This document shows positions 886 to 63,881 of a stretch of 64,000 bases of DNA, in pieces. Within the stretch, counting starts at the first letter, position 1, and every line of letters begins with the position of its first letter. Location of the stretch: assembly GCF_003790525.1 (NCBI RefSeq), contig NZ_CP033636.1; one strand, given 5' to 3'. The stretch comes from Escherichia coli (GTDB taxonomy: Bacteria; Pseudomonadota; Gammaproteobacteria; Enterobacterales; Enterobacteriaceae). Both the position numbers and the translations under genes were made by a program. The notes below the pieces were generated by a model that was not told the origin of the DNA, searched no databases, and saw nothing but the letters and a program-made list of their open reading frames with translations.

Positions 886-896
886 AAAGTTACTTT
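886..896. repeat. AAAGTWACTTT palindrome copy
   Basis: exact aaagttacttt in intergenic DNA upstream of the 1118 gene. Confidence 0.6.
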
Positions 897-950
897 TATG
901 ATTGGTTGAATACTCATTTTGAAGGCTAAAATCCAAAAAAGTGGATACAA

Positions 951-961
951 AAAGTTACTTT
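951..961. repeat. AAAGTWACTTT palindrome copy
   Basis: exact aaagttacttt, 65 bp from the previous copy. Confidence 0.6.
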
Positions 962-1117
962 TGCGTCATCCAGATGCACTGCCGCCATTTTGCATTCTGT
1001 ACGTTGGTTGCTTTCTCACTTGATGTCTCTTTTAACAGGCAAATTATCACTTTATCCGACCGGACCTTGTAGGCTGAATCCGTAGAATAAGGCTATAACC
1101 TATTCCCGGAGCATCAT

Positions 1118-5770: not shown

Positions 5771-6010
5771 AGTTAACCCGGCGGTTTAGGCTCCGGGTGC
5801 TAAATTACTTCTTCGATTTTCGTTAGTCCCAGCCCGCTCTTTCACGTCAACGGTAATGAGTCAAAAGTCATTACCGTTGTCATTGTTCTCTACCACCCTA
5901 TGTAGATCGAGATTGCGAAATTCAACGCTTTCTCCTGAGTCACCTGTTAACACCCGGTTTCTACGCTTTACTTCATTGGCCAGTACATCCAACGGAAAAT
6001 ATCGTAACGG

Positions 6011-7600
6011 GGTGACAATGGCAGTGAGTTGACCCACTCACTACCATCGACATTCAAATCCCGGCTTCTCTGGTAGCTATAGTGACAATGGTAATGATGT
6101 GTACCTTACTGGCATTGTCATTGTCCTCCGAGTGTGCGTTCAGCTTTGGGAGGACACCGGAACTTAATGCGGCGAGTCACGGCCATTGTGAATCTCGATT
6201 GGATTGGCGAATACGGCTTCCGGTTGGGCCAGATGTCAATGGTTATGCTTCATCCAGCTCATTACTGTAGTCATTGCCGTTCAGTTGAGCTGATGCTCCT
6301 CTCATTCTATATGGCGACAACGGTAGTGAGCCCAGAAAGTGACTACCGTTGTCATGGCCGTCCAGTAGAGCGGGTCAACCTCTTAACTCACAGGGTGACA
6401 ACGGTATTGAGCCCAGAAAGTCACTACCGTTGTCATGGCCGTCTGGTTAAGCAGATCATCCTCTCAATTCACAGGGTGACAATGGTAGTGAGCCTATTAA
6501 GTCATTACCGTTGTCATTGCCATCCAGAAGAGCGGATGATCCTCTCAATTCATACGGCGACAATGGCAGTGAGCCCAGCAAGTCACTTCCGTTGTCATAG
6601 CCTTCCAGAAGAGCAGATGAGCCTCTTAATTAACAGGGTGACAACGGTAGTGAGCTCATTAAGTCATTACCATTGTCATGGACGTACAGCTGAGCTGCTC
6701 ATCCTCTCAATTCACACACCGACAATGGTAGTGAGCTATTAAAGTCACTACCATTGTCATATACGTCCAGTTAAGTGGACCATCCTCTCAATACACACGG
6801 TGACAACGGTAGTGAGCCATTAGAATCACTACCGTTGTCATTGCTTTTCAGGTGCACTGATAAGGCTCTCAATAGACACGACGACAATGGCAGTGAGCAA
6901 TTAGAGTCACTACCGTTGTCATTGCTTTCAGCTGAGCTGATAAGGTACGTCATTTACACGATGACAATGGCAGTGAGCCAATCGAGTCACTACCGTTGTT
7001 AATGCCGACCAACCGAGGGAAGGGTCCGCTCAAAGAACTGAGTGACAACAGTAGTGAGATCATCCAATCACTACCATTGTCAGCTTAAACCTGTAGGACG
7101 AAGAGGCTTGTCCGATAAAATGACGACAATGGAAATGAGCCTATCCATCACTACCACTGTCATTAAAGTCCAGCGGTTCAACGTTAATCAGTAGCTCCGG
7201 ATGACAATGGTTGTGAGTCAGGCAATTCCCAAGCATTAGGTGACAGCAGCGTAACACCTCTAAGCTCACTTCTGTTGTCAGGGGTTAGGGTATTGAGTCT
7301 CTACCGTCGTCAGTGTTTCTGAGACACCAGTATTGCAGATCACTACAATTGTCACTTAAATATCGACGGGGGAGTAGATGCAAGTGACTGGCTAACCAGT
7401 ACCAGTTTAGATTCAAAACGATCCCATCTTTGTGGATGCGCTTGAGTAAGCTCGTATGACGATATGTCAGAGAAGTGACAACAGGTGTGAGTTGCCGGAC
7501 TCACTCCCGTTGTCATCCCCGGTTGAAGGAAGAGAATCCCCGGGGCTGTATATTTACCAGGTATCCTTACTCAAGGGGTTCGACACTCACTCCCATTGTC
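6011..7600. repeat. downstream array of ~80-bp repeats, each with a palindromic RepA-site-like core
   Basis: about 18 units of GTGACAAYGGTAGTGAG-N7-9-TCACTACCRTTGTCA separated by related ~40-bp spacers; units decay toward 7600; same core as the upstream iterons. Confidence 0.8.
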
Positions 7601-7653: not shown

Positions 7654-7664
7654 AAAGTAACTTT
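7654..7664. repeat. AAAGTWACTTT palindrome copy
   Basis: exact aaagtaacttt between the repeat array and the 3' end of the 7768..10188 gene. Confidence 0.6.
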
Positions 7665-7767: not shown

Positions 7768-10188
7768 TTACTTCAACTCGTCGATCTGAATCATGAATTC
7801 TGAGGTGCCAACTTTCCCATTTTCGGAAGGATAAACGGGTAACAGAAGATTATCCCCCTGGCCCATATCTATTTGCACCTCAACTGACTCGCCTGGAGCC
7901 GCCTGTGCCCCATTAAATTTAATACCGAAGGCTGCATCCTTCCGCACAGTCAGCGTTGCGTTCTGGACCCCTTTAGCAATTTCTCCATTTGTCTTACGCA
8001 GAACGTTAGTGGACAGGTACGCAAGTGGTACGCCATCTGTCGTTTTGAGAGGTGAACTGACCGACAATGTGCGTAGATTATGTAACTGCACAAGGTTATT
8101 CGGTAGATAACTGAACTTCTGAGTATAGGTTTTGGTATTCGACTGACTATCGGCAACTGTTACGCTAATTGAATAATTTTCAGATGGTTCGAAATTTGGG
8201 AACAGCCTCGGATACTCAGGCATGTATGTATCTTTGCCTGCCGGTGACCACGTAAGCTCAACGTTATCAGCTGTGGGGCCACCTACGAGCTGAAGACGGG
8301 TTATCCTCGGGGTTGTCAGATTATCTGCCAGAGCGATCCTGAGGTTCTCCAGGCCGTACACTACCGTATCGTCTTTTACCGGCTTTCCGTCGAATGTTAT
8401 GGCCACTGTCGGAGGAGTGTTATCCAGAGCAATTTCTCCGAAAGTTTTATTGGTCTGGTTCTGGAAGAAGTCCCTGATGTTGACCTCAACGTTGTATTTT
8501 CCTTCAGACTGACGGGATAAATCATAAGCAATCGTGTAGTTACCTGAGATACGAGATTTGATTACGCCTGTTGGTGACATCCGGGTACCGGTGTTCTTAT
8601 CGGAAAGATAAAATTCCCTCAATGAGACCGAGTCGAACCAGTTACCATCGCCTTCAAGTGACGCCAGTACATCCAGCTGCTTGTTAGTCTCGTCATATGA
8701 TATCGAGTTTATTACCGGCAGTTGTTTATTGTTCCAGCGTGTCATAATCCATTGCTCAGACCGCAAAATGGGATTGCTGATGCTGCGAACGAAGTAAAGG
8801 ATTCTATTGTAGCCCTGGGTACCCAAGGCCATATCAAACGTCTCAGGCGCTTCACACGAGGTTTTTCCTGCCGGAATGGTGCAGGTCGCCTTACCGCCGA
8901 TCTCCTGTGCAAAGGGCCGGGCTTCAACGTTAAAACGAAGTCGGGAAATTTTAATTGGCAGTCGTGATGAAGCCACACTCTCAAAATCCTTCCACTTAAC
9001 CCAGTTCCCCTTATCATCGAGGAAATCTACCCAGGTACCCGCAAATGCAGGCGTTTGGTTTGCAGATGGGTTTAGAACGAGGCTGTATGACGGATAATAC
9101 CCTCCCCACTGGCCAAAGTTCGCCATACGAGCCATATCCCCATTAATTGAGCCATAGGGAAGAGTCATTTCAACATAAGCATAAGTGCTGTCTACAGCTA
9201 TCTCTTTGGGGGCGGAATATTGATTGATGAACTGAAGCCCACCTTCTGAATAAGCACGGTAGTTAGATTTTGGGATCCGGTAGACTAATCGAATAGGGTT
9301 TTCGTTAACGACCATACCGGCTTTGTAAGCCGGATAATTAGAAACCCCGGGTACGACGCTGGAAGACGTATTTGGATCATGAACGGCCCACAGTGTCATC
9401 TCACCCAGCGTGTTGTCGTAGCGAAATTTTTGAGTTGGCAGCGTTCGGCTATTACCTGCGTTATCGAAGATAACAACTTTTGCAGTAAAGTCTTCATCCA
9501 GGTTGCTGTCTGGTATTCCGGTTCCCTTAACTGAATTCTTAGAGTAAGTGTGGTACATCTTTTGGCCGGATACGTCATACTGCATCTGTGTAGTGCTGTA
9601 GAGGCTACCGTCCTGCCTGTAAATATATATTAGGCCCTTATCAATACCATTTGCATCACTTACGCCCGAAGAGGTGAAGTCATACTGCCCCGTTGCCTCT
9701 AATCCAAGCTTCCACACGTCACCAGCGGTAGAGCCAGAACCAGTATTAGCGGTAAGAGCATTTGCCGCTGGAGGGGTGACATCAATTAGCCAGTTATAGT
9801 TATAGGTCGCTACAGGCTTCTGATTGAGATCTAACACGTTTATCTGAACGACAAATTTGCCTTCACCCAAAGCAGGCAAAGTTACTTTTTTGCCGTAGAA
9901 CTCACTACCGTCAGCAGCTGTTAGTCGGTCTGATACACCCGTCCGTGTAGTCGTAGTATTAAGAATGACAGTTCCAGTGTCTTTCGTGACTTTGACATTA
10001 ACGAAACGATCAAGACCTGAAATAAGTGTCAAAGTTACCGGTGATGCCGGATTAAGCATAAGACGAGAAGACGGGGCGTGGATCTCAATACCGTTCGTGT
10101 CCTTAAAGGCCGATTCATATATCTGAGCTGGGGCCTGAACAGACATACCGAGTCCGGCTACAGCAGTAATAAAAGCGAGATGTTTCAT
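7768..10188 (-). CDS. secreted large Ig-like-domain protein, paralog B
   Basis: 806-aa ORF; signal-peptide-like N-terminus MKHLAFITAVAGLGMSVQAPA; motifs IDVTPP and LDNTPPTVA; C-terminal block FSYLPNNLVQLHNLRTL...TVRKDAAFG shared with paralogs. Confidence 0.6.
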   Translation of the reverse strand: MKHLAFITAVAGLGMSVQAPAQIYESAFKDTNGIEIHAPSSRLMLNPASPVTLTLISGLDRFVNVKVTKDTGTVILNTTTTRTGVSDRLTAADGSEFYGKKVTLPALGEGKFVVQINVLDLNQKPVATYNYNWLIDVTPPAANALTANTGSGSTAGDVWKLGLEATGQYDFTSSGVSDANGIDKGLIYIYRQDGSLYSTTQMQYDVSGQKMYHTYSKNSVKGTGIPDSNLDEDFTAKVVIFDNAGNSRTLPTQKFRYDNTLGEMTLWAVHDPNTSSSVVPGVSNYPAYKAGMVVNENPIRLVYRIPKSNYRAYSEGGLQFINQYSAPKEIAVDSTYAYVEMTLPYGSINGDMARMANFGQWGGYYPSYSLVLNPSANQTPAFAGTWVDFLDDKGNWVKWKDFESVASSRLPIKISRLRFNVEARPFAQEIGGKATCTIPAGKTSCEAPETFDMALGTQGYNRILYFVRSISNPILRSEQWIMTRWNNKQLPVINSISYDETNKQLDVLASLEGDGNWFDSVSLREFYLSDKNTGTRMSPTGVIKSRISGNYTIAYDLSRQSEGKYNVEVNIRDFFQNQTNKTFGEIALDNTPPTVAITFDGKPVKDDTVVYGLENLRIALADNLTTPRITRLQLVGGPTADNVELTWSPAGKDTYMPEYPRLFPNFEPSENYSISVTVADSQSNTKTYTQKFSYLPNNLVQLHNLRTLSVSSPLKTTDGVPLAYLSTNVLRKTNGEIAKGVQNATLTVRKDAAFGIKFNGAQAAPGESVEVQIDMGQGDNLLLPVYPSENGKVGTSEFMIQIDELK

Positions 10189-13808: not shown

Positions 13809-16199
13809 ATGAAAATCAAACTAGCCCTGCTTATTGCATTTGCAGGTTTCAGCGCAGGAGCTTCCGCTGAAATCGCAGAATTCAGCTTTAAAGATACCCT
13901 GAACGTTAAAAAGACCGTATCGCCTGCATCCGTATGGATTAATCCGGTAACGAGCTTTGACGTTGCCGTTATTTCCGGTCTGGACCGTTATATTACGCTC
14001 AGTCTGCTGAAAAGTGACGGGAGCCTCATCTGGAGCACGAAAAGCAGCCTGGTTACCGTAGATGACCGTACCACATCTTCGACAGGCTTTGATTATTACG
14101 GCAAGACTCTGACCGTACCAGCGATGGGAGAAGATAGCTTCACCCTCAGAGAGGTGATTACCGACTTGCAAGGGAAGGAGGTCTCCCGGCAGGATTACCC
14201 GCTTGCAATTGACCGAACGCCTCCGGCAACGGGTACCATAAGTTATACGAGAAACGGGTGGAACTTTGGCAGCGAAGCGATCTTCACTTCAGTACCAGCC
14301 GGTATGCAGTACGCCAGCGTCCAGGCACTGGTCTTTAATGGACTGAGTGATAAAGGTTCCGGGCTTGCTAATGCTGAATATTTCATAACCGATGCCGCTG
14401 GAGTGGAGCGTAAAAAGCCAGCGGAAATTAATACAGTGGAAGGTAGCGTAACCGTTCAAGTCGCCGACGCAAGCAGCAATGCCCTGGCACCGGAAAACCG
14501 CTCTGAATATAAAGTGGGGATCTACCTTTATGACAAAGCGGGAAACAGGATCGAACTAAGCCGCCGAAGCGTAATTGATCGGGTTAAGCCTGACGATATC
14601 ATCCAGGTGCAGGACGCCACTACCGGATCATGGGTCACTTATCAGTCTGGCATGACCGTCTTCCAGAACCCTATTTCCGTACGGGTATTAAGGAAAAAAA
14701 GTGACTTTACTGCTGTTAACGGTTCCAAATATGGCTGGGCGGACTCGAATTTCCAGACGTCCGATAGCACTTATAATATTTATACTTTCAAATACATATA
14801 TCCCAATGTGGGGGATACTTATCATGAATTCCAGACTCTGGCAGGAGGAGTAAGACGAATTCATCATAACTCCCTCAACTTCACTCCAGCCCCGGCGATG
14901 GAAATAGCCCCGAAGATAGTGGCTAAAGAGATGTACCGGAGTGATACCAGTGAGTGGTTAACTCAGGCCTCAATCAGCGTTAAAACCGCCACCATTAGCC
15001 GCATAAAGGTAACCGCTGAACCCCGACCATACGTGCAAAAGTTCAGAACGGTAAAAAATGCAGCCTGGTTCTGCACTATACCTATCGGACAAAGTTCATG
15101 CGAGATGACGGTTAACTTCAACTACACCAGTGACAAAGGATTTGAGTATCTGCACCTTTACTCGGGAAAAGATGGTGACAGCATATTCGATGCGCTTGCT
15201 GGTAATTTTACGGTTATCTGGGATAACAACCCACCGGTGGTTAATGTCGCTCAGGTAAACAAGGCCTCCAAGACAATCACTATGACGGCCACCGATAATG
15301 ATCGCGTCAACGCCTGGAACATCAGCTACTGGGATACCAAAGTTTTCGAAGCCACCCTTAAAAATGCCCGGGGGGAACCTTTCACGCTGAAGCCTGTGAC
15401 CGTCAGTGAAAGCGATTATAAAACCAAAAACGCCACCTTCTCATACGCTGGTCTACCGGACGGGGATTATACGGTGGTTAGCGTCTCTGCCACGGATCTT
15501 GTTGGAAACACCGGAACCAAAACGCTTAATGCACCGCTGAAAATTGACTCAACGCTTCCGGTTATCGCGTTCAGTTTTAATGGCGCAGACGCAGAAGGAA
15601 AACTGGTTAAAGGGCTTGAGAACCTTCGCATAAGCGTTACTGATGCCTCTGGGGATGCTTCCCTGACATCGCTTCAGCTCGCTGGTGGACCTAACTCTGA
15701 AAAGGTCACCCTGGCATTCACGCCGTTATCCAAGGATGTCTTTATTCCGGAATACCCCAGAATCTTCCCCAACACTGACGAATCGGGACAGATGTATCAT
15801 CTGGAGGCACTGGCTATTGACGAATCAGGTAACCGGACCACTAAAACGCTTAATTTTACCTACCAGCCTGCGAATCTGATTATGCTGGATAATCTCAAGA
15901 CGCTGGCCACAGCCGTAGCACTGAAAGCAACGGACAACACGCCGCTGGCCATCATCCGAACCAGTGTGTTGCGGCGTCAGGACGGTTCTATCATTACCGG
16001 ACAGTTAAACGGAACCCTGACTGTTCAGAAAAATGCCCAGTTCGGCGTTACGGTTGCCGGAGTTACGGTCCAGCCTGGTGAAACTAAATCGCTGTCACTG
16101 GATCTTGGTAATGGTGAAGAGCGCACGTATCCCGTTACTCCCGCTGTAAGTGGTCAATCTGGCACGGCCACATTTGCTATAGAATTCCCTCAAACATAA
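13809..16199 (+). CDS. secreted large Ig-like-domain protein, paralog C
   Basis: ORF 13782..16199; likely start at MKIKLALLIAFAGFSAGASA (13809); motifs IDRTPP and IDSTLPVIA; C-terminal block FTYQPANLIMLDNLKTL...TVQKNAQFG shared with paralogs. Confidence 0.6.
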   Translation: MKIKLALLIAFAGFSAGASAEIAEFSFKDTLNVKKTVSPASVWINPVTSFDVAVISGLDRYITLSLLKSDGSLIWSTKSSLVTVDDRTTSSTGFDYYGKTLTVPAMGEDSFTLREVITDLQGKEVSRQDYPLAIDRTPPATGTISYTRNGWNFGSEAIFTSVPAGMQYASVQALVFNGLSDKGSGLANAEYFITDAAGVERKKPAEINTVEGSVTVQVADASSNALAPENRSEYKVGIYLYDKAGNRIELSRRSVIDRVKPDDIIQVQDATTGSWVTYQSGMTVFQNPISVRVLRKKSDFTAVNGSKYGWADSNFQTSDSTYNIYTFKYIYPNVGDTYHEFQTLAGGVRRIHHNSLNFTPAPAMEIAPKIVAKEMYRSDTSEWLTQASISVKTATISRIKVTAEPRPYVQKFRTVKNAAWFCTIPIGQSSCEMTVNFNYTSDKGFEYLHLYSGKDGDSIFDALAGNFTVIWDNNPPVVNVAQVNKASKTITMTATDNDRVNAWNISYWDTKVFEATLKNARGEPFTLKPVTVSESDYKTKNATFSYAGLPDGDYTVVSVSATDLVGNTGTKTLNAPLKIDSTLPVIAFSFNGADAEGKLVKGLENLRISVTDASGDASLTSLQLAGGPNSEKVTLAFTPLSKDVFIPEYPRIFPNTDESGQMYHLEALAIDESGNRTTKTLNFTYQPANLIMLDNLKTLATAVALKATDNTPLAIIRTSVLRRQDGSIITGQLNGTLTVQKNAQFGVTVAGVTVQPGETKSLSLDLGNGEERTYPVTPAVSGQSGTATFAIEFPQT

Positions 16200-18866: not shown

Positions 18867-18877
18867 AAAGTTACTTT
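18867..18877. repeat. AAAGTWACTTT palindrome copy
   Basis: exact aaagttacttt, 120 bp upstream of a promoter module. Confidence 0.6.
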
Positions 18878-33065: not shown

Positions 33066-33076
33066 AAAGTAACTTT
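33066..33076. repeat. AAAGTWACTTT palindrome copy
   Basis: exact aaagtaacttt, about 30 bp after the stop of 32744..33037. Confidence 0.6.
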
Positions 33077-41504: not shown

Positions 41505-41515
41505 AAAGTAACTTT
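41505..41515. repeat. AAAGTWACTTT palindrome copy
   Basis: exact aaagtaacttt upstream of the ParB-like gene. Confidence 0.6.
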
Positions 41516-41630
41516 TCTCTCTGAGTCACCTTCTGAACCAGTTATTTTGCTTAAACGTAAAAACGGCCCACTGTTGTGAAGATTTAAAACGGACGGATCG
41601 AGTAGTATTGCCTCAGGAAAATTTTTAAAA

Positions 41631-41651: not shown

Positions 41652-41690
41652 CAACCTATTAGGAAAAATGTCGAACCTGGTATTGTTGTG
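41652..41690 (+). promoter_or_regulatory. island promoter module, variant
   Basis: caacctattagg then 17 bp then tattgt, upstream of the 41732 start. Confidence 0.35.
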
Positions 41691-41731
41691 TTGTAGCGCA
41701 GTTAAACAACCAACCAAAAAAGAGAACAAAA

Positions 41732-42916
41732 ATGTCCGCAATCGAAACTGAAGTAAAAAACAACAGCAACGAAATCAGCCTTCGTGGTTACCTGGAACGC
41801 ACTGGTAACGGTGCCCGTAAAGGCAACGGCCTTATCATTGACCCTTCGGTTGTTGTAGAGCAGGAAGGCTTTAACACCCGCACGGCCGGTATGGGCGAGC
41901 TCTACTATTCAATGCCTCACGTTGTGGAACACCTGAACAGCCTGGCCGATGCCTACATGGAAGACCCGTTCAGCGTGACGCCTATCGTTGTTCAGATGGT
42001 TAATGGCGTACCTGTACTGCGTCAGGGGGCTTGCCGTATCCGTTCCATCGCTATTGCAAACCGCCAGCTGGAAGCAGAAGGGCGTGAACGCATTACTCGT
42101 ATTCGCTGCGAAGAGTTTCGCGGTAGCGCTTCAAAAGCAGAACTCTTCACCCTGACCGGCAACTCCAACCTGGCGCTGTCTGTCGTAGCTGAAGCGCTTT
42201 CAATTAAGCGTCTGGTTGAAGATAAAGAAGAGCCTAAGACCTTTGCGGAACTGGCAAAAAAACGTGGTAAATCAGAGCAGCATCTTCGCCAGATGGTTCG
42301 CGTACTGGACCTGCCTTCTGAACTACAGACCATGCTTGTGAGCGATCAGGTGAGCATGTACGTTGCACTGGACGAGTATATGTACAGCGGTGAGGATGCG
42401 GTAGATAACATCAACAAAGCGATCTCCATCTATGGCAAGGCGACGAAAAACACGCTGAAATTCGTCAAAGCTGCCAAGGTAGAAGAGCGCATGGCAGATC
42501 CGCAGACTCCGGAAAACATCGGTGCTGAGCAACCGGCAGATGATACTACCGATAACACCCCGGTACCGGATCAACTGAACGATGAAAGCAATACGGAGAC
42601 GCTGGATACGCCACCGGTACAGGAACCGGCTCCAGCTCCAAAGGACAGCGCTCCTAAACAGAACCCGGCAGGTAAAGCACCTTCCATGTCCAGCGTTCTG
42701 AACAAAAAGACTGTGACCGTCATTGCAGACACCGCGATCCCGATTTTTGAACGTATTGCTGAAGAAGCCAAGCTTAAAGAAGGTGAATCTGTCAGTACTG
42801 ATACTTACACGCTTGTTCTGACCAATGATGAAATGAACGATATCATCAACGCTCATGCTGACCTGAAAGAGTACCTGCGTAAGCATGCTGATAAGATGAA
42901 CAAGGGACAGTCATGA
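41732..42916 (+). CDS. ParB-like protein (ParB N-terminal domain plus HTH), no adjacent ParA
   Basis: 394-aa ORF; LIIDPS...FNTR...PIVVQMVNG...RQGACRIRS resembles the ParB/Srx fold; HTH-like TFAELAKKRGKSEQHLRQMVRVLDLPSELQ; acidic proline-rich linker. Confidence 0.5.
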   Translation: MSAIETEVKNNSNEISLRGYLERTGNGARKGNGLIIDPSVVVEQEGFNTRTAGMGELYYSMPHVVEHLNSLADAYMEDPFSVTPIVVQMVNGVPVLRQGACRIRSIAIANRQLEAEGRERITRIRCEEFRGSASKAELFTLTGNSNLALSVVAEALSIKRLVEDKEEPKTFAELAKKRGKSEQHLRQMVRVLDLPSELQTMLVSDQVSMYVALDEYMYSGEDAVDNINKAISIYGKATKNTLKFVKAAKVEERMADPQTPENIGAEQPADDTTDNTPVPDQLNDESNTETLDTPPVQEPAPAPKDSAPKQNPAGKAPSMSSVLNKKTVTVIADTAIPIFERIAEEAKLKEGESVSTDTYTLVLTNDEMNDIINAHADLKEYLRKHADKMNKGQS

Positions 42917-47456: not shown

Positions 47457-47467
47457 AAAGTAACTTT
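47457..47467. repeat. AAAGTWACTTT palindrome copy
   Basis: exact aaagtaacttt in intergenic DNA. Confidence 0.6.
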
Positions 47468-52307: not shown

Positions 52308-54388
52308 TGAAACTTCCTTAGAAATTTATTAAGATTTTTGATATCGAGATTTTGACGCAAAGTAACTTTTCCGGCCTTCTTGAAAAGCATTTCCGACAGA
52401 GTTGTGTTTGGCTTCATTTGTTTCTCAGCAACAGCAATAGGGATTTGGCCTACAACCTTCCTGCCATCTTGAAGCCTGGCAACTATGTGAAACATAGGGA
52501 CCTGACCCAAGAGATCCTTTGGAATACTCTCTTCTAAAGTTGTCTGCTTTCTTTCTGAGATTGAACCTGAGAAGTTATTATGCGGCAAAGATGTTTCTGA
52601 ACCGGTCGTATAAGTGACCATATTTGTGCTTATCGCACTCTTACCAAAGTTCTCTACAACAAGCGTCTGAGTAGGAGTATCGTTGACTCGCAAGCTTATA
52701 TAATTGTTGCAGAGCCCCGTAATTCGATTGGCAGTTTCAACACTTGCCGCAGCAATAAAGTCGGAGATGGTTTGGGTGCAAATAAACAGTGCAATTTTCG
52801 CTGCACGACCCTGCGCCAGAAGGTTAATCATAGGGTTGTTAATGGCTGAGTGTGCCTCATCAACAAAAATACTTATCCTGGAATTAGCTGACATATCACC
52901 ATCCTGAGCGTTGTAGCGACTACCGGCACAGGAGGTCAGATCTGACATTATTAATTGAGAAATAGCAGCTGCTGTATCGGGGTTTGAAAGGCCATCAAGC
53001 GAAATGTATAGCACCCCGCCAGTGCTGAACATCCCTTCGCTTGTTACAATTTCTCTTGATGATACTGAGTTCGGGTTAGGAGATAAAAGCTCATTTAAAG
53101 GTTTTTCAATGAGCATATCGAAAACAGGCATAATACCTGCGGTCATTTTAGCCATATGCTCTGGGTCGGACATTGAGTAATCAATAAGCTGGGAAACAGT
53201 ATCTAACCAGTCTATTTGTTCGGACCCCTCGTAATTCATGAAATGAGCCGTAAACCATTCAGCGAGACGCTTGAAACGTACCGGCAAGGTTTCGTTAGCG
53301 ACGTACTTAACTTTTTCGGTCCAGACATCGTAACCATAATATCTCGCGTAACATGACTCCATTACCTTGACTGTAAGATTCACAATAGACATGTGGCTTT
53401 TCATGTTCTTGTGAATCAGATAAATAGAAGGCTTTTTCTCTATGTAAGAAAGCCCGGAAATCACATTGGAAACGAGAGCCTTGGCATACTGAACGAATGG
53501 GTTAACCTCACCGGGAACTGTCACCAAGCTCAAAAGACGAGATGTTAGGTCAGAAACATTAGTATAGGTGTTGCAGACATCAATACAGACCGAAGATGCT
53601 GGCTGGCCAGGATGAAATTTATAGAAAGGAAGACCGAGGGTCTTAGCCTCTTCCATTAGAGATTCTCGCCACTCTGCATCGTTCTTTGGATCTATGACAA
53701 CAACAACATGACCAAGATGAAGCATGCTAATGCTTAGTAAACGCTGTAGCACCGTTTTCCCGGTACCCACGTTTCCGGTTATCAGAGTATGACCAAACCA
53801 ATTGTCTTCAGTTACAAATATGGGTTCCCTACGTTCCACAGCAAAAATTGCATTGCTGCCGCCCATCTTACGAGCCATTGCGTCAAAATGTCTCTTAATT
53901 GGGTTGAAGACGAATGGCAACTCGATCTCACGTTTATCACTGGAGAGGTTAGCTATTTGATATGCCCGATCCGCATGTTCCGGGCCCCACTCAAACCCAT
54001 CACAAAAATAGGACTTTCGCTCGGGTATATCCTTATTTTTATTTTGATAATCCTGAACCAGTTGACGATACTTTCGCTCATTGGAGAAAAAGTTACTTTT
54101 GTTAATTACACGCAGTGAATCAAGACTAACGAACATGAAATGTCGCTTGAATACACGCCAATGAGCCATCAAGAATGGCGCTGCTGTTTTGCAACGATAA
54201 AGGCACAGCAAAAAAAGCAATATTGAGGTGAACAGAACTATTGGGGCGATGTCCAGTCCGTCTGAAGAAAGTCCCATATAAAGCATAGAAACCGAACAAA
54301 TCAAAAGTATTGAGGCACTACGATACTCAAGAATAGGCCGATAAAAATTCTCTTGTGCATGGAGGTTAGTCCTCTTCGAATCTGACAT
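52304..54388 (-). CDS. type IV coupling protein (TraG/TraD/VirD4 family)
   Basis: 694-aa ORF; two N-terminal membrane helices; Walker A GNVGTGKT and hydrophobic strand VVVVIDPKND; adjacent to the relaxase. Confidence 0.7.
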   Translation of the reverse strand: MSDSKRTNLHAQENFYRPILEYRSASILLICSVSMLYMGLSSDGLDIAPIVLFTSILLFLLCLYRCKTAAPFLMAHWRVFKRHFMFVSLDSLRVINKSNFFSNERKYRQLVQDYQNKNKDIPERKSYFCDGFEWGPEHADRAYQIANLSSDKREIELPFVFNPIKRHFDAMARKMGGSNAIFAVERREPIFVTEDNWFGHTLITGNVGTGKTVLQRLLSISMLHLGHVVVVIDPKNDAEWRESLMEEAKTLGLPFYKFHPGQPASSVCIDVCNTYTNVSDLTSRLLSLVTVPGEVNPFVQYAKALVSNVISGLSYIEKKPSIYLIHKNMKSHMSIVNLTVKVMESCYARYYGYDVWTEKVKYVANETLPVRFKRLAEWFTAHFMNYEGSEQIDWLDTVSQLIDYSMSDPEHMAKMTAGIMPVFDMLIEKPLNELLSPNPNSVSSREIVTSEGMFSTGGVLYISLDGLSNPDTAAAISQLIMSDLTSCAGSRYNAQDGDMSANSRISIFVDEAHSAINNPMINLLAQGRAAKIALFICTQTISDFIAAASVETANRITGLCNNYISLRVNDTPTQTLVVENFGKSAISTNMVTYTTGSETSLPHNNFSGSISERKQTTLEESIPKDLLGQVPMFHIVARLQDGRKVVGQIPIAVAEKQMKPNTTLSEMLFKKAGKVTLRQNLDIKNLNKFLRKFH
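52359..52369. repeat. AAAGTWACTTT palindrome copy inside coding sequence
   Basis: exact aaagtaacttt within the 3' end of the coupling-protein gene. Confidence 0.4.
54089..54099. repeat. AAAGTWACTTT palindrome copy inside coding sequence
   Basis: exact aaagttacttt within the 5' part of the coupling-protein gene. Confidence 0.4.
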
Positions 54389-57300
54389 TATAGGTTCCCA
54401 GCCTCTTTCAGGTTATTGATAATTCGTTCAATGTCCACTTTCGCCCGGTCTGATGCGGCCAGCAAAGTAGGCATGTTAAATGCATGGCATTTTGTATTGA
54501 TCACAGCACCAGAATTAACGAGGTACTGAGGAAGCTTATTGAAAAGATCTTGAGCCTCTAACTGCGACCCAAATTTTTCCACGCAAGATTGGGTCAGATA
54601 GAGAGTATTAGGAGTACTTACCATAAATCTGTTTTTGCGCTTTCTTTTAAACGCCACCTCCATTTTGGACAGAATTTGATGCAGTACTGACGCAATTTCT
54701 ACAAATTCAAGCTCTGTAACGTCACCTTCGCTTATAAGCGAGAATTCACCATTTTGGTCTGATTCAGTAGTTGCAAAGACTTTACTGTTCAGATTGTGAC
54801 CAGAAACAGGTGATGCTGGTTTTTGTACTTCTGCTTTGTCCGATGATTTATTCCGGTTGCGCTTGGGATTTTGTTTTTCTACCGGTGCTGTTGGGGCGAA
54901 CAGTCTGGCCAGTGCTGGCGAAAGATGATGCCCCTTAGCGTCTGTGGGCGCATGCTCTCCATTTGATTCTTCAAGTACAGGAGGTAAGGCGGGCTCTTCA
55001 CTTGCCATCACACTGGTTGCGGCTGCTTCGGTCTGGGAATACACAACTTCAGCTGGTGGTGGGCAGTTACCCTCAGTATCTGGTTCTGAGTTTTCTTGTC
55101 CTACAGAAACATCCATAGAGCGTTCAATCGTACCCTGGGGATCAGCGTTCTGTTCTCGGTTAAGTTCTGGTAATTCTGACGGCTCGGGGAGAAGCTTTTC
55201 ATTATGGACCGAAGAGCTTGTTGCACAACTACCGACTTCTGGCCGAGAAACACTAAGCTGTGTGAAATCGGTATAATCAATGATCTCATGCTCTTCATCT
55301 TCTTCCTCAAAAAGATGTTGATAATGTTCATATTCCACAGCCTCAGTTTTCAGCGGACCAGTCGCGGATGCACTATCGGTTCCATGATATTCCACGTCGC
55401 CAGAATGTTCTTCGACTGCATTTACACGTGGGGGAGGCAGCTCAAGCGTTTGCTTTGGACGTGGGGCAGAGTTTTCAACAGAAGACTCATCATTAATCAC
55501 TAATGCCTGATACATAGAAGTATTGAAAAGTGACTTTAAAGTTGTTGGCCTTCTTGGCTCATGATAGGTGAGCTGGAACCCGGCGCAGTTATCGCCGAGC
55601 TGGACTAAACGCAGATCGTCAATGTCCCTTACTATCCACATTCCATCGAGAGAGCCTTCTCTGAATGTCAGTTGGAAATAGGGCTCTTCACTAAATGCTT
55701 TTTCATCTAATCCCGGCAGCAATGCCATAGTGGCATCTATGTTGAGGTAGGGGACAGCATCTACACACACTATATAGTCATTGGAAAGTGGAGCGCTTAA
55801 AAGGAGTTCATGAAGTTGGTTGACCAGGACATGGGATTCCGTGTCCTTTGCCGATTCATCTTCACTTTCTTCTATATCAGGAATGACAGGATCAGCTGCT
55901 TCCTCACCCTCAGATTTAACTATCTGCGTGTCATTATCAATTTCATTATCACTTTCGGCTTTCTTCTCAAAATCGTCGGATGAGCCTTCATTTTTCTTAG
56001 AATGTATATCAACATCAATAGAGGCAGTGGAGCGGCCTAAATCATTAACCTTAAGAACAGCCGTCTCAACAGTATCAGTAATTTTAGTTATAGCGTCCCG
56101 ACCGGGCACTGGTCTTCTGTATTCAGTAACTGTTTTTTGCTCGTCAATGTAAATAAAGTCTTTATTGGCATTAACGCTAAAAAGACCCGGCACTGAGTCA
56201 GGGATTTTATAGGAATCAAAGATTAAACCAATCCACCTTAGCTTAAGAAGGTTATAGAATTCTAGTTTCCCTATCCCATTTCTAAAGATGTTTGATATTT
56301 CGTTTTCCGAATAGATACCCGGAATGAAGTAGTGAACGACACGCTCATCATCATAGGGCTCGACGTAACCACGTTGAACTAGGGATTCTACCAATACCGT
56401 CTTACCAGCCTCTCCCTGAGGGAAGTTATATTTATGTAATTCGAAATCATTGAGAACAAAATCAAGGAATGCGTTCTCGTTAAGGTATACCTCACCATTT
56501 ACGATAATGATGTGCATAGGCTTAGCATTGTAATTGTTGATATTGATACTGGTAAAGTTGTGCTTGATGGTACTAATGGCCCTTGCTGCTGCATCATTAG
56601 AACGCAGACCCATGATAGGGTCACGTAAAACATTAAGGTCTGTACCAGTAGAATAGAAATCAGCGGTCCTCACGCATTTAGACAAAAAGTCATTCCCATC
56701 AGTATAAACGTTTAGGGCGGTGATCATTTTTGAATAAACACGTTCTTTATTTACCCGATCCAAAAATGCAAGACATACCGGGTTTAGGATTCGCTCAAGG
56801 AAAACGCTGGACCAGATATTATGTTGATTATGAATACGCTTTCGCCAGTGGATTTCGTATTCAACCACGTCATTTTCACGTGCCCAGTCAAGAAGACTTT
56901 GTGAGCTTGGCGTCCAAATGATCGGACTAGCTAAATTCAGGCTTACAATATCGAGATCGTAAACCTTTCCGGCATCATGGACTAAACCACAGATAAACGC
57001 AGCATAGAGATATACTTTTCTACGGACTACTTCTTCATCTTGATATCCGATTGGTCTCAGTTCTGAGTGATGCGCATTTTTTAAAGAGAGTATGGCCACT
57101 TCCAGGCTGTGAGAAAGTAACCCACCAATACCATTATGATGATGATTTTCGGAAGCTGGCAAAAGATGTATCCAGCGAACATATTCAACCAAGGGCTTTA
57201 ATACTAAATTAGTAAATGTATATGCATCGTCCCTGATGTCGCTATCGCTGATAGCTAACATCATTGAAATTGAGTGCAGCTTTTCCCGATACAGAGACAG

Positions 57301-58949: not shown

Positions 58950-58960
58950 AAAGTTACTTT
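58950..58960. repeat. AAAGTWACTTT palindrome copy
   Basis: exact aaagttacttt in the divergent intergenic region. Confidence 0.6.
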
Positions 58961-59044: not shown

Positions 59045-59200
59045 CAAAAAAAATGACCCTATGGAACTTTGTCCATAGTGACACTTTTATAAAAAGTGAC
59101 CCTATGACGACATTACATAGGGTCACTTTTCAAACATAAGTGACCCTATGTGAGGTATTCATAGGGTCACTTTTCTTTGTTTAGTGATCCTATGTAAGCA
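59045..59200. other. candidate oriT / relaxosome binding region
   Basis: five copies of AAGTGACCCTATG in direct and inverted orientation, forming two perfect 15-bp inverted repeats with 9-10-bp spacers, between divergent transfer operons. Confidence 0.45.
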
Positions 59201-59434: not shown

Positions 59435-59445
59435 AAAGTTACTTT
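59435..59445. repeat. AAAGTWACTTT palindrome copy
   Basis: exact aaagttacttt, about 80 bp upstream of the 59522 start. Confidence 0.6.
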
Positions 59446-59521: not shown

Positions 59522-60322
59522 ATGTCAGAATCTGATAATTTAACTCGTAGCTTACTCGGTAAACTTTTCCGCACTGAGATTTCGCTTATTCGTAGTTACC
59601 GTGCATTTTTAATGTTATTGCCTGTGCATGGATCTTCTGCATATCAAACTGGGACTCCTCTTCTCCAGCGTCGCCTATTTGGGAAAGGATTTAGTACAGC
59701 CGCTGATTTAGCTTTTGAAGTGGAAACACGTCCAGGTAGTTTTTTGGTTCCGCGTACACTCGGAAAGGAAATTACATGGGAGAGGTTTTTTTCTGCGGTC
59801 TTGGACGGTGATTCCAATGTAATTCGTGAATATGATACAAATGATATTGACTATGGTATTTACGATGCCGGTGAAAAAGTGACTTTTCTGAATGGTACAG
59901 TGGATATCTATAATCCCAAGAAGATTCATGAGTTGCGTTCTAAATGTGTTGATATACAGAATGACTACTTTATGCAGGTGTTCTTTATCTCAATGCTCGC
60001 ACCAGAGTTTGTAAGTGTTTTCTTTGGTTTAAAACCAACTACAGCTGATGCTATTAAAGACATTGGTTATTCATCGTTAAAAACAATTAACGATGTCGTT
60101 CTTTTCCCACGTACAATTGCTTTCTCACAAGGGCATATTGAAGAGAGTGTTTCACTTAAAACGAAAGTTTTTGCCTGGGCTTATGAATTGTCTGCTGACA
60201 TCCGGTTAGGAAAAGTTAGTGATGATTTGATGGAACTATTACGTTATGACACTATGTTCACCAGTCACCGTCAGGATGTGTTCAACACTTTAACAAATAA
60301 AGTTATGTTAAAGGATTATTAA
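59522..60322 (+). CDS. hypothetical protein, possible transfer regulator
   Basis: 266-aa ORF, first gene after the candidate oriT. Confidence 0.4.
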   Translation: MSESDNLTRSLLGKLFRTEISLIRSYRAFLMLLPVHGSSAYQTGTPLLQRRLFGKGFSTAADLAFEVETRPGSFLVPRTLGKEITWERFFSAVLDGDSNVIREYDTNDIDYGIYDAGEKVTFLNGTVDIYNPKKIHELRSKCVDIQNDYFMQVFFISMLAPEFVSVFFGLKPTTADAIKDIGYSSLKTINDVVLFPRTIAFSQGHIEESVSLKTKVFAWAYELSADIRLGKVSDDLMELLRYDTMFTSHRQDVFNTLTNKVMLKDY

Positions 60323-60323
60323 T

Positions 60324-60836
60324 ATGGCAAAGGTCGATCAAACAAAAGCTAATGCTCTATTGCGAGCAGCAAGGACTATGTCGCTTGGGGCAAATAAAAA
60401 TACAATACGAATTTTGTACGGTAATCATGTTGCTGAAAATATCGATTTTGAGCCTGGTGCAAAAACAAAACTCAAAAAAGGTATCCGGGGCTGGAGCAAA
60501 CGCACAGATAACCGCCGAGCTTTTTCTGCTGTTATTGATGTCGCAGTTAACTATTTTGGTTTTGATCCAATAAATCCGGAAGCGAGTTTTCGGCAAATTG
60601 ACTTCAACCGAATAATGAGTGTCCTTCATAATCTGGGATACTTTGTATGCGCACCGGAAGTTAATAAAATAATAGAAATCCTTACTTCTATGAAAGAAAT
60701 TGAAGAACTAGGTGCCTGCGAAAAATGTAAACGCCCATACATTGTGCCAGTGACAAATGATGCTTATTGTCCACGTTGCAGATTATCTTCAACTGCTTCA
60801 GCCATAGAGAGGTATTCTCAAGAAGAATTAGATTAA
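60324..60836 (+). CDS. hypothetical protein with C-terminal zinc-ribbon motif
   Basis: 170-aa ORF; CEKCKRPY...CPRCR cysteine pairs. Confidence 0.4.
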   Translation: MAKVDQTKANALLRAARTMSLGANKNTIRILYGNHVAENIDFEPGAKTKLKKGIRGWSKRTDNRRAFSAVIDVAVNYFGFDPINPEASFRQIDFNRIMSVLHNLGYFVCAPEVNKIIEILTSMKEIEELGACEKCKRPYIVPVTNDAYCPRCRLSSTASAIERYSQEELD

Positions 60837-61429
60837 ATTTAAAAAAGATATCGCGAAACTTGCCTTGTCTGAATCTAAATATTGACTTAAGTCAAATTCT
60901 GTTGTTTGCTTTACAATCAAATATTAGTTACAACTTAAATATTAACTCTTGACAAGTAAAGATATAATTTGATTTTTCTTTATACAGTCTTTCTTCGTTC
61001 CAAAAAATGTTCACCTTTTTTTCTGTTGAAAACGTAAAACTACTTAGGTTCTCTAAAACCTTCTATGCATGACGACTTCTTAATCGCTTTCAATTAATAT
61101 ATTTTATATTCTTGCCTAAGTTCGCTTCTTTGATCCTTAGCTATTCCTTCTTTGAAATATAGAAACAGCGTTACTGGTGATGATTTTTTTCAGCTCTTAA
61201 TACACCTGTTTTCAAAGCAATATTTGCTTTTAGATATTCGATAAAACCATGTTTTTGTTACACCGGATTTTTCACAATGTGCAAGATGGATGATCTTTCC
61301 ATCACCGAGACTATCTTCTTAGTCAGCACTCCTTTTCCGTCCTTTTCAACATAAAAACGACCATGCTATACGAGCTCTAACCTTTTTTTTGTATGCCATC
61401 ATAACCGCATCAGAAAAGGAGAACGGTCT

Positions 61430-62476
61430 ATGACTCGTATTGCATTAGCGCCTTCAAAGATGGTTTTGCTTATGTCTTTGGTAATTACTGGTGCCCACGC
61501 CAGCCCTGAGCAACCCCTAATAAAAGATACGCCCTTTGTATCAGGCCAGGCTTATAAGAAGGGTTTCTTCTGGTATGACGATCCTGCTAAAAAAAGCGAA
61601 GCTGAAGAAGAAAAGGTTTTGCCACCAACCGGTGCTGCTAGCTCGCCTTCAAAAGAGGAAAAGGTAGATTTAAATTCAAAATGGCTAAAAGAGAATATGC
61701 CTCGACTGTTAACGCAGGCAATGGATAACCCTACCGCAGAAAATCTATCACGTTATTACACGGCGCAAAGGTTAATGCTGGATATCAGTACGCGTTTTTC
61801 TGACAAATCAAAAGATTATTTTCTTAAAAACCCGATGATGTCTGAAAAACGCAGGCAACCAGTGGAAAAGGTGGCACTGGATGCTCACCGCACTGTTGTT
61901 GAAAAAAATCAGCAAACGGTAATGAAAGATATCTTTACTAAGTCAGGTTTATTTTTCTTTTTCCAGAGTACTTGCCAGTTTTGCCACGAAGAGAGCCAAA
62001 TACTTCAATTTATGCAGAACTATTATTCGGTAGATATTCTTCCAATCAGTATGGATGGAAGGCCATTGCATAATGGCCTTTTTCAGGATTTTAACATCCC
62101 CAATGCACAAATTATTGATCAATTTAAAATTCGAGAGGTACCTACAATTTTCCTGGTTTCAAAGGATGGGACATCAGCTCAGCGCATTAGTGAAGGCATG
62201 ATCTCCGCTGATGAATTAAAGAACACTATTATACTTGCCGCGAAGGGCATGAATCTGATCGATGACGCTTCGTTTCAGTCAACTCTAGATATTAAAAGGC
62301 AATATACCATCGGTGATGATGGCGTTATTACCGTTAATAAATCCGAAATGGAATCAGACCCATTCTTACTTCAAAAAATAATGGACCAAAAACTCGAAGG
62401 CTATGACATGCCTACGGCCGATCCGGTCAATTATCTCAATGCTGGCGGCAGTTTTGGAGGCACTTATGCGCAGTAA
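61430..62476 (+). CDS. periplasmic thioredoxin-fold protein, TraF/TrbB-like
   Basis: 348-aa ORF with RBS aaaaggag; signal-peptide-like N-terminus; CxxC motif TCQFCHEE. Confidence 0.45.
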   Translation: MTRIALAPSKMVLLMSLVITGAHASPEQPLIKDTPFVSGQAYKKGFFWYDDPAKKSEAEEEKVLPPTGAASSPSKEEKVDLNSKWLKENMPRLLTQAMDNPTAENLSRYYTAQRLMLDISTRFSDKSKDYFLKNPMMSEKRRQPVEKVALDAHRTVVEKNQQTVMKDIFTKSGLFFFFQSTCQFCHEESQILQFMQNYYSVDILPISMDGRPLHNGLFQDFNIPNAQIIDQFKIREVPTIFLVSKDGTSAQRISEGMISADELKNTIILAAKGMNLIDDASFQSTLDIKRQYTIGDDGVITVNKSEMESDPFLLQKIMDQKLEGYDMPTADPVNYLNAGGSFGGTYAQ

Positions 62477-63881
62477 TGCCGTTTTCAACTTCAAAAAGTT
62501 ACTTTTGTCTCTTTCTGTTTGTGCTGCAATTTTAGCCCCGACTGCAAATGCAGACAACGCAATGCGTAACATTTTCAATGGCATGATGACGTCTACCAGC
62601 CCGGCCACCTTTTCCACAGCAACCCGTACAGGCATAGTTGGCGGGTCAATGTCTTACCGAACAACAAACGTTAATACCAACCTTGTTTCCATGTCGTTTC
62701 CAAAAGCTTCTGTCGGTTGTAATGGTATTGACGTTTTTCTTGGGTCCTTCAGCATGATCAACGGGGACCAGCTTGTGCAGGTGGCCCGTGGTATTGCCCA
62801 GGGTGCGGCTATCTATGCTTTTAACGTTGCTGTTTCAGCTATTTGTGCTGACTGTGCTGCAACGATTAATGACATCCAAAACAAACTGCAAGCGCTAAAT
62901 AAATTTGCGAAAGATTCATGCAATGCAACTTACTCTTTCCTTTCTGAAAACGTGGGTACGCCAAGCCAGTTCGCTAACTCAGTTAGCTCTGGACCAGCCT
63001 CAATTCTGGGATCGATTAATGGTCTCATTCCTGATTTTGGCTCATCGATGACAAAGTCACCTGAAGCTGTCACTTCTCAGGTTAAAGCAAAGGATCCCGA
63101 AGAGTTCGCTGAAAAATTCAGTGGTAACCTCTTCTATATGTCGTTCATGGATATTGATAAGGGAACAATGAACATCGGAGGGGTAACGGAGTTATCCGGT
63201 TATAAATTGGCAGAACAACTTATGTCTCTCGTGGGTACTGTCATTATCAACTGGGATAGCAAAGGCGAAAAAGCGGGAATGGAAGTCCGCCCGTCTACCA
63301 TGACTGTCACGGATTACATCATGGGGCCACCAGCTGGCGGATCAATTAAAATGCTCAAGTGTTCTCCGGCACCAGATCCATCATCCCCACGAAAGGCTCA
63401 GTGCCTTGTCATGTCAGAAGTTAATGACGGTGGTTTTAAGGGATTGAAGGATACCATTTCTGATCTTCTTTTAAACGTACAGAAAAAAATCATCAACGAC
63501 GTTCGTGTTTCAGATGATGAATTACGCATTATCTCCTATATCGGCATCCCGACCATTATCGACTCTTTGCAAACATTCGAAGCACCGGAAGGGTACGCAT
63601 ACATTCAGGACATAAGCACTATTGCTGCGACGAGCCTCGTAATCAACATGTTGCGCCAGGTTGAGGCCAAAATTTCAACCATGAGCATACCGAGTGAGTC
63701 GCTGTCGGGTAAAAGGGATGATCTCAACCGATTAACAGACAATCTCTCAAAACAGGTTAAAGCCGCCTATGAGCTATCGCACAGCCAGGTCGGTACCAGC
63801 TCGGACGTCATTTCAACCTGGGATAACCGTCGCCTGCAACGGAAGGCTTTCACTGAAAGTATTCGTGGCACACGTAACTGA
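62466..63881 (+). CDS. TraH-like secreted pilus-assembly protein
   Basis: ORF 62403..63881; likely start at 62466 (MRSNAVFNFKKLLLSLSVCAAILAPTANA signal peptide), overlapping the upstream stop; stop codon TGA coincides with the first bases of the following IS end. Confidence 0.45.
   Translation: MRSNAVFNFKKLLLSLSVCAAILAPTANADNAMRNIFNGMMTSTSPATFSTATRTGIVGGSMSYRTTNVNTNLVSMSFPKASVGCNGIDVFLGSFSMINGDQLVQVARGIAQGAAIYAFNVAVSAICADCAATINDIQNKLQALNKFAKDSCNATYSFLSENVGTPSQFANSVSSGPASILGSINGLIPDFGSSMTKSPEAVTSQVKAKDPEEFAEKFSGNLFYMSFMDIDKGTMNIGGVTELSGYKLAEQLMSLVGTVIINWDSKGEKAGMEVRPSTMTVTDYIMGPPAGGSIKMLKCSPAPDPSSPRKAQCLVMSEVNDGGFKGLKDTISDLLLNVQKKIINDVRVSDDELRIISYIGIPTIIDSLQTFEAPEGYAYIQDISTIAATSLVINMLRQVEAKISTMSIPSESLSGKRDDLNRLTDNLSKQVKAAYELSHSQVGTSSDVISTWDNRRLQRKAFTESIRGTRN
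62495..62505. repeat. AAAGTWACTTT palindrome copy inside coding sequence
   Basis: exact aaagttacttt in the signal-peptide coding region of the TraH-like gene. Confidence 0.4.

Follow-up and report, generated by a model that had tools for sequence, protein, structure and literature searches.

A dispersed 13-bp palindrome of IncHI plasmids and an orphan ParB-like protein as its candidate reader

The window analysed here, a stretch of 64,000 nucleotides (nt) of Escherichia coli contig NZ_CP033636.1, is backbone sequence of an IncHI2 (MOBH, MPF_F) conjugative megaplasmid, and a short palindrome, AAAGTWACTTT (W being A or T), is scattered over it. Comparison of sequences leads us to conclude with high confidence that this palindrome, which extends to 13 base pairs (bp), represents a cis-element of the whole IncHI family maintained by purifying selection. 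As for its function, the best explanation, held with moderate confidence on computational grounds, is that the site is read by an orphan ParB-like protein, the orthologue of R0104 of plasmid R27, as part of a transcriptional control layer resembling that of KorB.

IncHI plasmids spread multidrug resistance in typhoid Salmonella, and among Enterobacterales they also disseminate mcr-1, carbapenemases and resistance to metals. For about two-thirds of their genes the function is not known (PMC4853401), and the control of their conjugation is plasmid-wide (HtdA/TrhR/TrhY, H-NS), yet its coordination has been tied to no DNA element (PMC7366339). A literature search that left the original R27 and R478 sequence papers outside its scope recovered the motif string in no plasmid context, and the papers on IncHI regulation and stability (PMC7366339, PMC4853401) define no such element.

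The palindrome in the window

Seventeen exact copies of AAAGTWACTTT were found in the window when both strands were searched. An earlier note on this DNA had counted 16 copies, all of which were recovered at their coordinates, but had overlooked the one at 9878. Its expectation of 0.03 copies under a uniform base composition is arithmetically right, and the shuffled control that it proposed gave a mean of 0.09 copies and a maximum of 1 (100 dinucleotide-preserving shuffles). In an unbiased word count, the palindrome ranks first among the over-represented 11-mers of the window, above the iterons of RepHI2. The base flanking the core is A or T in 24 of the 34 half-sites and conservation ends beyond it, so that the full site, aAAAGTNACTTTt, is a 13-bp palindrome (aAAAGTWACTTTt) with an invariant 11-mer core and a strong preference for A or T at the centre. 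The core is built from 5-bp arms and a 1-nt spacer. Four one-mismatch variants are present, about the level expected by chance; since three of them deviate at the central base alone (AAAGTGACTTT at 14698, 55527 and 59876), the arms AAAGT/ACTTT occur 20 times when any centre is allowed.

The copies are mostly intergenic (13 of the 17, the number of intergenic copies that the earlier note had given), and in the annotated homologous stretch nine out of 12 sites lie between genes, against 20.5% of non-coding DNA (P = 8e-5). Their flanks are mutually unrelated. Seven of eight sites checked for hairpins fold no better than shuffled sequence (z -0.51 to +1.26), which rules out an intrinsic terminator or a structured repeat of the repetitive extragenic palindromic (REP) type; site 23079 alone has extended flanking complementarity.

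Sites, centre variants and the candidate reader gene along the window (no strand is assigned to the palindromes; L007 and L008 are loci of R478):
886..896: site AAAGTTACTTT, divergent intergenic region between a 208-amino-acid gene (119-745, minus strand) and an immunoglobulin (Ig)-like gene (1118-3574, plus strand)
951..961: site, same divergent region as 886, 65 bp apart
7654..7664: site, intergenic, about 100 bp past the stop of the Ig-like gene 7768-10188 (minus strand); R478 L008 8291
9878..9888: site, within the Ig-like gene 7768-10188 (minus strand); R478 L008 6067
14698..14708: centre variant AAAGTGACTTT, within the Ig-like gene 13782-16199; same variant in R478, L007 49690
18867..18877: site, intergenic; ATG 19048 is 170 bp downstream
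23079..23089: site, intergenic; ATG 23296 is 206 bp downstream
28128..28138: site, intergenic, 107 bp past a phosphoadenosine phosphosulfate (PAPS)-reductase-family gene and 132 bp before ATG 28271
30859..30869: site, intergenic, 151 bp before ATG 31021; a promoter-like match begins 34 bp downstream
33066..33076: site, intergenic; ATG 33217 is 140 bp downstream
41505..41515: distal site at the ParB-like gene, 216 bp before its ATG; island of IncHI1/IncHI2 identity
41631..41641: proximal site at the ParB-like gene, 90 bp before its ATG, beside a conserved promoter-like block
41732..42916, plus strand: candidate reader, orphan protein of ParB/KorB/Noc fold, 394 amino acids, orthologue of R27 R0104
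47457..47467: site, intergenic; ATG 47631 is 163 bp downstream
52359..52369: site, within the 3' end of traD (52304-54388, minus strand), 51 bp before the start of the next gene
54089..54099: site, within traD, about 290 bp from the traD start; R478 195826
55527..55537: centre variant AAAGTGACTTT, within the MobH relaxase gene
58950..58960: site, divergent region containing the origin of transfer (oriT), 132 bp before the mobI/H-operon start
59435..59445: site, 76 bp before the trhR ATG (R operon)
59876..59886: centre variant AAAGTGACTTT, within trhR
62495..62505: site, where a thioredoxin-family gene meets trhH, about 30 nt inside the latter; R478 187421

The 886/951 pair is kept in R478 (L008 15074/15139), and site 7654 borders the field of RepHI2 iterons. 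Throughout the region of small genes the sites typically lie 130-220 bp before start codons, and there are sites, too, in the regions that control the H, AC, Z and R operons. The spacing between sites is fairly even, with a mean of 3.85 kb and a coefficient of variation of 0.69.

Distribution over plasmids

The motif is replicon-wide, as shown by a count over R478, the reference IncHI2 plasmid (274,762 bp), which has 47 copies with A or T at the centre and 7 with G or C. Thirty-nine copies fall in 174.8 kb of mostly backbone sequence, and the 100 kb in which ter, mer, sil, pco and transposon DNA abounds contain 8. When the R478 sites were classed by hand against the annotation tables, 29 of 47 (62%) were intergenic, with P < 1e-5 for any plausible non-coding fraction. 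The density of the palindrome is about 1 per 4-6 kb of IncHI backbone. The first 100 kb of R27 (IncHI1) contain 24 copies, with no exact copy in Tn10, and two Klebsiella IncHI1B/FIB plasmids gave, respectively, 13 copies with an A/T centre in 41 kb and 23 copies with any centre in 40.6 kb. The exact core is likewise enriched in relatives found in Yersinia intermedia and Leclercia, and in a relative of one more lineage.

No copy of the palindrome occurs in 40.6 kb of an IncC plasmid, which shares its hosts, relaxase family and pilus type with IncHI and has two-mismatch matches at chance level, or in a 50-kb sample of the E. coli K-12 chromosome, here even when one mismatch is allowed. Similar density in matched, unrelated enterobacterial DNA, which would have spoken against the proposal of the earlier note, was therefore not seen in these samples. 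A scan of all reference genomes for two copies 20-50 bp apart returned more than 120 loci, nearly all of them local tandem arrays in unrelated phyla, and was uninformative here.

Conservation of the sites in diverged plasmids

Site positions are kept in diverged relatives. Between IncHI1 (R27) and IncHI2 (R478) the sequences flanking the sites are only 57-71% identical, whereas the ten fixed bases of the motif are 100% kept, intragenic sites included. For the intragenic sites of trhI and htdF, the sole change in the motif is a T/A flip at the centre, which is its free position, and the site following the PAPS-reductase-family gene (28128) is retained in R27 though the spacer is no longer alignable. 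In the Tra2 region, eight of the 12 R478 sites with a comparable position in R27 are kept in place, against 3-11% expected from neutral decay (P between 2e-10 and 6e-6). Taken together, the conservation of these bases within diverged flanks and the lack of a hairpin argue for a sequence-specific site for a dimeric protein, under purifying selection.

An orphan ParB-like protein as candidate reader

The earlier note had pointed to the ParB-like gene at 41732 for the two copies just upstream of it, and both are indeed there, at 41505 and 41631. The protein encoded at 41732-42916 has an N-terminal ParB nucleoside triphosphatase (NTPase)-fold domain and a ParB helix-turn-helix (HTH) at residues 149-209 (Pfam HTH_ParB), the latter aligning to the DNA-binding domain of Caulobacter ParB, followed by a disordered acidic, proline-rich linker and a predicted C-terminal helical hairpin. 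An AlphaFold2 model, made from an alignment of 82 relatives, has a predicted local distance difference test (pLDDT) score above 95 over residues 20-250. With Foldseek this model matched ParB, Noc (7ol9) and KorB across the NTPase-fold and HTH domains (about 220-235 columns), the best superposition being with the KorB-KorA-DNA complex 8qa9 (template modelling (TM) score 0.65). Residues N48, R50, G99 and R102 are invariant among the 82 relatives. The GxxR P-motif, which defines the nucleotide pocket of the ParB fold (PMC12704722), reads G99-A-C-R102; nucleotide specificity is not predictable from sequence in this fold (PMC12704722). The protein has no match to the P1 ParB family PF08775, which matched one scanned IncHI protein only, taken as the ParB of Par1; the Par1 ParB is unrelated in sequence. 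The R0104 family is a narrow one, with members only on plasmids of Enterobacterales.

Exact or near-exact sites stand about 100-250 bp upstream of the R0104-type gene in all six lineages examined, in which the protein is 35-100% identical:
IncHI2 (window): two sites, 90 and 216 bp before the ATG
IncHI1 (R27): two sites, about 105 and 223 bp before the R0104 gene
Yersinia relative: two sites, about 105 and 205 bp before the gene
Leclercia relative: one exact and one near-exact site before the gene
36%-identical relative: one near-exact site, 100 bp before the gene
Klebsiella KP-p1 (35% identity): six-site cluster upstream of the gene

The putative reading helix, H-[LIV]-R-[QKN], is found in all six of these motif-positive lineages and is altered in motif-negative homologues (HVRI in IncC, HVHT in a non-IncHI element); in the paralogue described below it reads TIS/A. 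In a microarray study of R27, R0104 showed equally strong expression at 25 and 37 C (2196/2155 units), and its neighbours were not expressed (PMC7366339 supplement).

Two other features were noted around the gene. A 27-bp block, ATTTAAAACGGACGGATCGAGTAGTAT, at 41582-41608 between both sites, is near-identical in IncHI1 and IncHI2 amid a diverged spacer and may be a second operator or part of the promoter. Promoter-like modules (CCTATTAG...TCGA...GGTATYRT, a possible extended -10) occur at 41655-41700 and 23226-23275, before the ParB-like gene and the gene at 23296. A search with the pattern CCTATTAG-N9-TCGA for additional copies returned chance-level matches only, and the idea of a promoter module shared downstream of 23079 and 41631 was dropped. 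The R27 'partition protein' R0153, named as such in the transcriptome paper, is a thermonuclease-type 'parB' (PMC4853401 Table S2) and was rejected as a ParB-HTH protein; its R478 homologue (152708-153223) has a copy of the motif 14 nt into the gene.

Which protein reads the site, and to what end

Under the KorB-like explanation, R0104 would bind each palindrome as a dimer, and the sites would be loading points from which a nucleotide-dependent clamp could reach nearby promoters, by analogy with KorB, VirB and BisD. Transcription would then be under a single control layer spanning the plasmid, with the R0104 gene itself autoregulated. The intergenic bias and the location of sites 130-220 bp before start codons fit loading and sliding of the KorB type, and these positions do not fit simple occlusion of a promoter core. 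Repression is a slightly better fit than activation, and weakly so, because in R27 there is abundant R0104 at either temperature, next to site-bearing genes that stay silent. Since copy number, family specificity, conservation and the ParB fold are all favourable, the analogy with KorB operators drawn in the earlier note and its choice of the 41732 gene appear reasonable.

Several observations weigh against this explanation. About 38% of the R478 sites are intragenic and the sites keep no fixed distance to promoter-like elements, two features that would fit a purely architectural role equally well. Box II in the R0104 family is GACR/GHCR instead of GERR, so that nucleotide binding and clamp behaviour remain putative, and the predicted C-terminal hairpin is unlike the C-terminal domain of KorB. 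The genes adjoining 41732-42916 are small hypotheticals with no parA among them, and no KorA-like partner was identified. The R27 deletion Del7 (90,001-96,150), which removes R0104 together with its sites, is viable with no phenotype reported (PMC4853401). The R0104-type gene also appears to have been lost from E. coli pCFS3292-1 (NZ_CP026936), a 192-kb non-mobilizable IncHI2 derivative in which it was undetected, the single ParB-like match being R0042-like; this suggests that the gene is dispensable for persistence in nature.

The last points against R0104 as sole reader come from that second orphan ParB-like paralogue of IncHI, R0042 of R27, which is encoded outside the window, is 32% identical over the N-terminal and HTH domains, and has the highest expression among the R27 genes looked up (PMC7366339 supplement). 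Its promoter contains a one-base asymmetric variant of the site, AAAAAGTACCTTTTT, kept in R27 (L009 45096-45106) and R478 (L008 20102-20112) about 95 bp before the ATG in an otherwise diverged spacer, and found once per plasmid; an IncHI1B plasmid moreover has consensus sites upstream of its R0042-like gene. The variant site leaves more than one candidate for the binder; it fits cross-regulation by one reader, and R0042 could itself be the reader or a co-reader. A search for plasmids with a single paralogue yielded a recent IncHI2 deletion derivative and the IncHI1B plasmid with sites near an R0042-like gene, which give no evolutionary separation of the two proteins. We consider it probable that the reader is one of the two paralogues, and put R0104 specifically at close to an even chance. 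The earlier suggestion that the 41732 protein is the binder stands as far as its fold, its HTH and the upstream sites in six lineages are concerned, but the protein is not the only candidate.

The same ParB-like protein or proteins might instead play an architectural role, the sites forming a distributed centromere or a Noc/NBS-like array (NBS, Noc-binding site) that positions, compacts or tethers a plasmid of 200-300 kb, or else protecting or organising the plasmid on entry into the recipient; we judge these two variants, taken jointly, to be unlikely. They would account well for the intragenic sites conserved between IncHI1 and IncHI2, for the fairly even spacing and for the centromere-like cluster of six sites in KP-p1; an invariant core is typical of parS/NBS-type loading sites, and the structural matches to ParB and Noc are as good as those to KorB. 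However, Del1, which removes R0042, is viable like Del7, and stability in the R27 deletion series was reduced by Del16 only (PMC4853401). IncHI plasmids already have two partition modules, Par1 (P1-type ParAB) and Par2 (ParMR), of which the Par1 locus has no nearby sites, and the strong intergenic bias would be unexpected, though palindromes fit more easily into non-coding DNA. With Del7 and Del1 viable without loss of stability and no parA adjacent to the R0104-type gene, an essential centromere role is unlikely, and the distributed centromere that the earlier note offered beside a global regulator is disfavoured. R0104 may be redundant with Par1, Par2 or the paralogue.

More doubtful still is that the palindrome is the DNA box of the IncHI conjugation circuit, bound by TrhR/TrhY and antagonised by HtdA, an explanation considered because this circuit is plasmid-wide and lacks a defined DNA site (PMC7366339). 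TrhR and TrhY act as activators and HtdA as an anti-activator; mutation of htdA evokes a response in 139 of the 181 R27 genes that are expressed (PMC7366339), a response whose breadth would be explained by such a box. The sites in the H, AC and Z control regions and before trhR would agree with it, as would the lack of nearby sites at HtdA-independent genes (Par1 parAB, Tn10) and the C-terminal zinc ribbon CxxC-N13-CxxC (CEKC...CPRC) of TrhY (60324-60836). Yet among the TrhRY-dependent promoters (F, H, AC, Z) that of the F operon has none, its region (60836-61430) being siteless even at two mismatches, and the R operon has a site although it was reported as HtdA-independent (PMC7366339). TrhR, TrhY and HtdA have no recognisable DNA-binding domain, many sites are deep within genes, and clustering is seen at ParB-like genes, not at htdA. 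The boxes of FlhDC/AcaCD-type activators are long and composite, unlike an invariant short palindrome.

That the palindrome is recognised by a host factor or by some other plasmid protein (Tus-like, orphan methyltransferase, H-NS/Hha), or is a passive remnant of a repeat, seems highly improbable. IncHI plasmids do code for several methyltransferases as well as for a Tus-like protein, H-NS and Hha, and GTAACT is common to the motif and the Ter core. Against this, the motif is missing from the IncC plasmid of the same hosts and from the chromosome sample, and the unrelated flanks imply that the copies do not belong to a mobile repeat. Type II methylase sites are shorter than 11-13 bp, a palindrome reading both ways in about 50 copies is incompatible with the polar function of Ter, and the AT-rich nucleation motif of H-NS is unlike the palindrome. 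To our knowledge, the Tus/Ter, SlmA-SBS (SlmA-binding sequence), MatP-matS and H-NS motifs are different sequences, and they were set aside.

Other features of the window and of related plasmids

Besides the sites, the window contains RepHI2 with its iterons, the Ig-like protein genes, a long same-strand run of small genes annotated without function, and a Tra1 region with mobI, the MobH relaxase gene, traD, trhR/trhY and trhH. The RepHI2 iterons (ACTACCGTTGTCA, variant CACTACCATTGTC), which are the next most repeated words after the palindrome, are dense at 5872-7069 around repHI2 and also occur at 3961 and 4026. Between mobI and trhR, in the region with oriT, inverted and direct repeats (AAAGTGACCCT / AGGGTCACTTT) at 59093, 59119 and 59163 (within 59093-59173) have a half-site-like AAAGTSAC (S being G or C) in common with the palindrome, and are possibly relaxosome sites. 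The zinc ribbon of TrhY recalls FlhC-type activators of related MOBH elements; TrhY as an FlhC-like activator found no sequence-level match in the PDB or NCBIfam and was not retained.

The IncC plasmid pNDM10505 (NC_019069 6469-47044) has its own dispersed 14-bp palindrome, TTTCACATGTGAAA, with 7 exact copies against 0.01 expected (positions 290, 3874, 4333, 9648, 12984, 24028 and 27443 of locus L132). The copies lie at or between gene ends, one of them about 50 bp before the operon of parA and a KorB-domain protein. The resemblance of TTTCACATGTGAAA to chromosomal parS points to dispersed ParB-type sites as a frequent feature of MOBH megaplasmids. In K. pneumoniae KP-p1 (NZ_CP012754), CCCCGCATGCGGGG is repeated eight times near 24-30 kb of locus L010, along with type IV genes (Csf2, Cas6, helicase) associated with clustered regularly interspaced short palindromic repeats (CRISPR), and the copies are probably CRISPR repeats.

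Implications

A broader and rather speculative proposal, which we hold to be unlikely as it stands, is that IncHI plasmids have their own sequence-addressed chromatin layer, in which one or both of the R0104/R0042 clamps, whose genes rank among the most strongly expressed of R27, would load at about 50 sites, coat the backbone and spare acquired resistance DNA. If true, this layer would act with the plasmid H-NS/Hha and the HtdA/TrhRY circuit, would be the missing cis-logic of a coordinated temperature-dependent response of about 75% of the plasmid genes and, given the parS-like TTTCACATGTGAAA of IncC, would be general for MOBH megaplasmids. More immediately, backbones of the IncHI type could be recognised by the 13-bp site as a compact sequence marker, and with a defined site in about 50 copies and two candidate proteins named, the question is open to direct testing.

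Comparison with known systems

The closest counterpart is KorB with its operator OB on the IncP-1 plasmids RK2/RP4. Both proteins belong to the ParB family, with an NTPase-fold N-terminal domain and an HTH, and OB likewise is a 13-bp palindrome with a degenerate centre (core TTTAGCSGCTAAA; PMC11790492) present about once per 5 kb over the plasmid, partly at promoters and partly distant from them. KorB acts at a distance of up to 1.5 kb by sliding dependent on cytidine triphosphate (CTP) (PMC11790492). R0104 is dispensable in R27 (PMC4853401), whereas KorB controls kil functions. The two proteins share only about 19% sequence identity, Box II differs (GACR/GHCR instead of GERR), and the IncHI plasmid has about 4 times more sites on an approximately 4.5 times larger molecule, with 38% of them intragenic. 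KorB has a ParA partner (IncC) and a clamp lock (KorA), and none was identified for R0104. Of the traits of a KorB-type system, IncHI thus has an exact palindrome dispersed over the backbone far above chance and a plasmid-encoded ParB-family protein with a GxxR NTPase fold and an HTH, and lacks an identified ParA partner and clamp-locking co-repressor (KorA/TrbA).

VirB and its virS sites on Shigella pINV also involve an orphan ParB-like protein on a large, H-NS-silenced enterobacterial plasmid. According to PMC10770331, VirB depends on CTP, recognises inverted repeats ahead of many promoters and exerts its effect from afar; IncHI plasmids for their part are thermoregulated through H-NS/Hha (PMC7366339). 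VirB, however, is an anti-silencer induced at 37 C, whereas R0104 is expressed constitutively beside silent neighbours, which does not fit activation of the VirB type. VirB belongs to the lineage of P1 ParB, a family (PF08775) that the 41732 protein does not match. Noc of Bacillus subtilis resembles R0104 as an orphan ParB paralogue with a widely scattered palindrome, much of it within genes. It tethers DNA to the membrane via an N-terminal amphipathic helix and controls division; R0104 is without an evident helix of this kind and the IncHI sites show a strong bias to intergenic DNA.

With canonical ParABS systems the IncHI pair shares the ParB fold, an HTH that would read a short exact palindrome and, in one lineage, sites clustered at the parB-like gene. 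In place of a parS beside parAB that is needed for inheritance, the IncHI sites are plasmid-wide, no parA adjoins the R0104-type gene, and this gene is unneeded for stability (PMC4853401). BisD of the Pseudomonas element ICEclc is another orphan ParB-like protein of a conjugative element and, in PMC12409273, is described as a CTP clamp acting on transfer genes from a distance; it activates few promoters in a subpopulation, and an array of about 50 identical sites is not known for it.

The R0104 system would give the small set of ParB-family proteins with roles beyond chromosome segregation (KorB, VirB, BisD, Noc) a further natural member of large size. The principle of a ParB-family protein with dispersed plasmid operators is already known from KorB; what is new here is an orphan with no identified ParA or KorA, a variant Box II, a different C-terminal domain and a number of sites about fourfold higher, with many sites inside genes.

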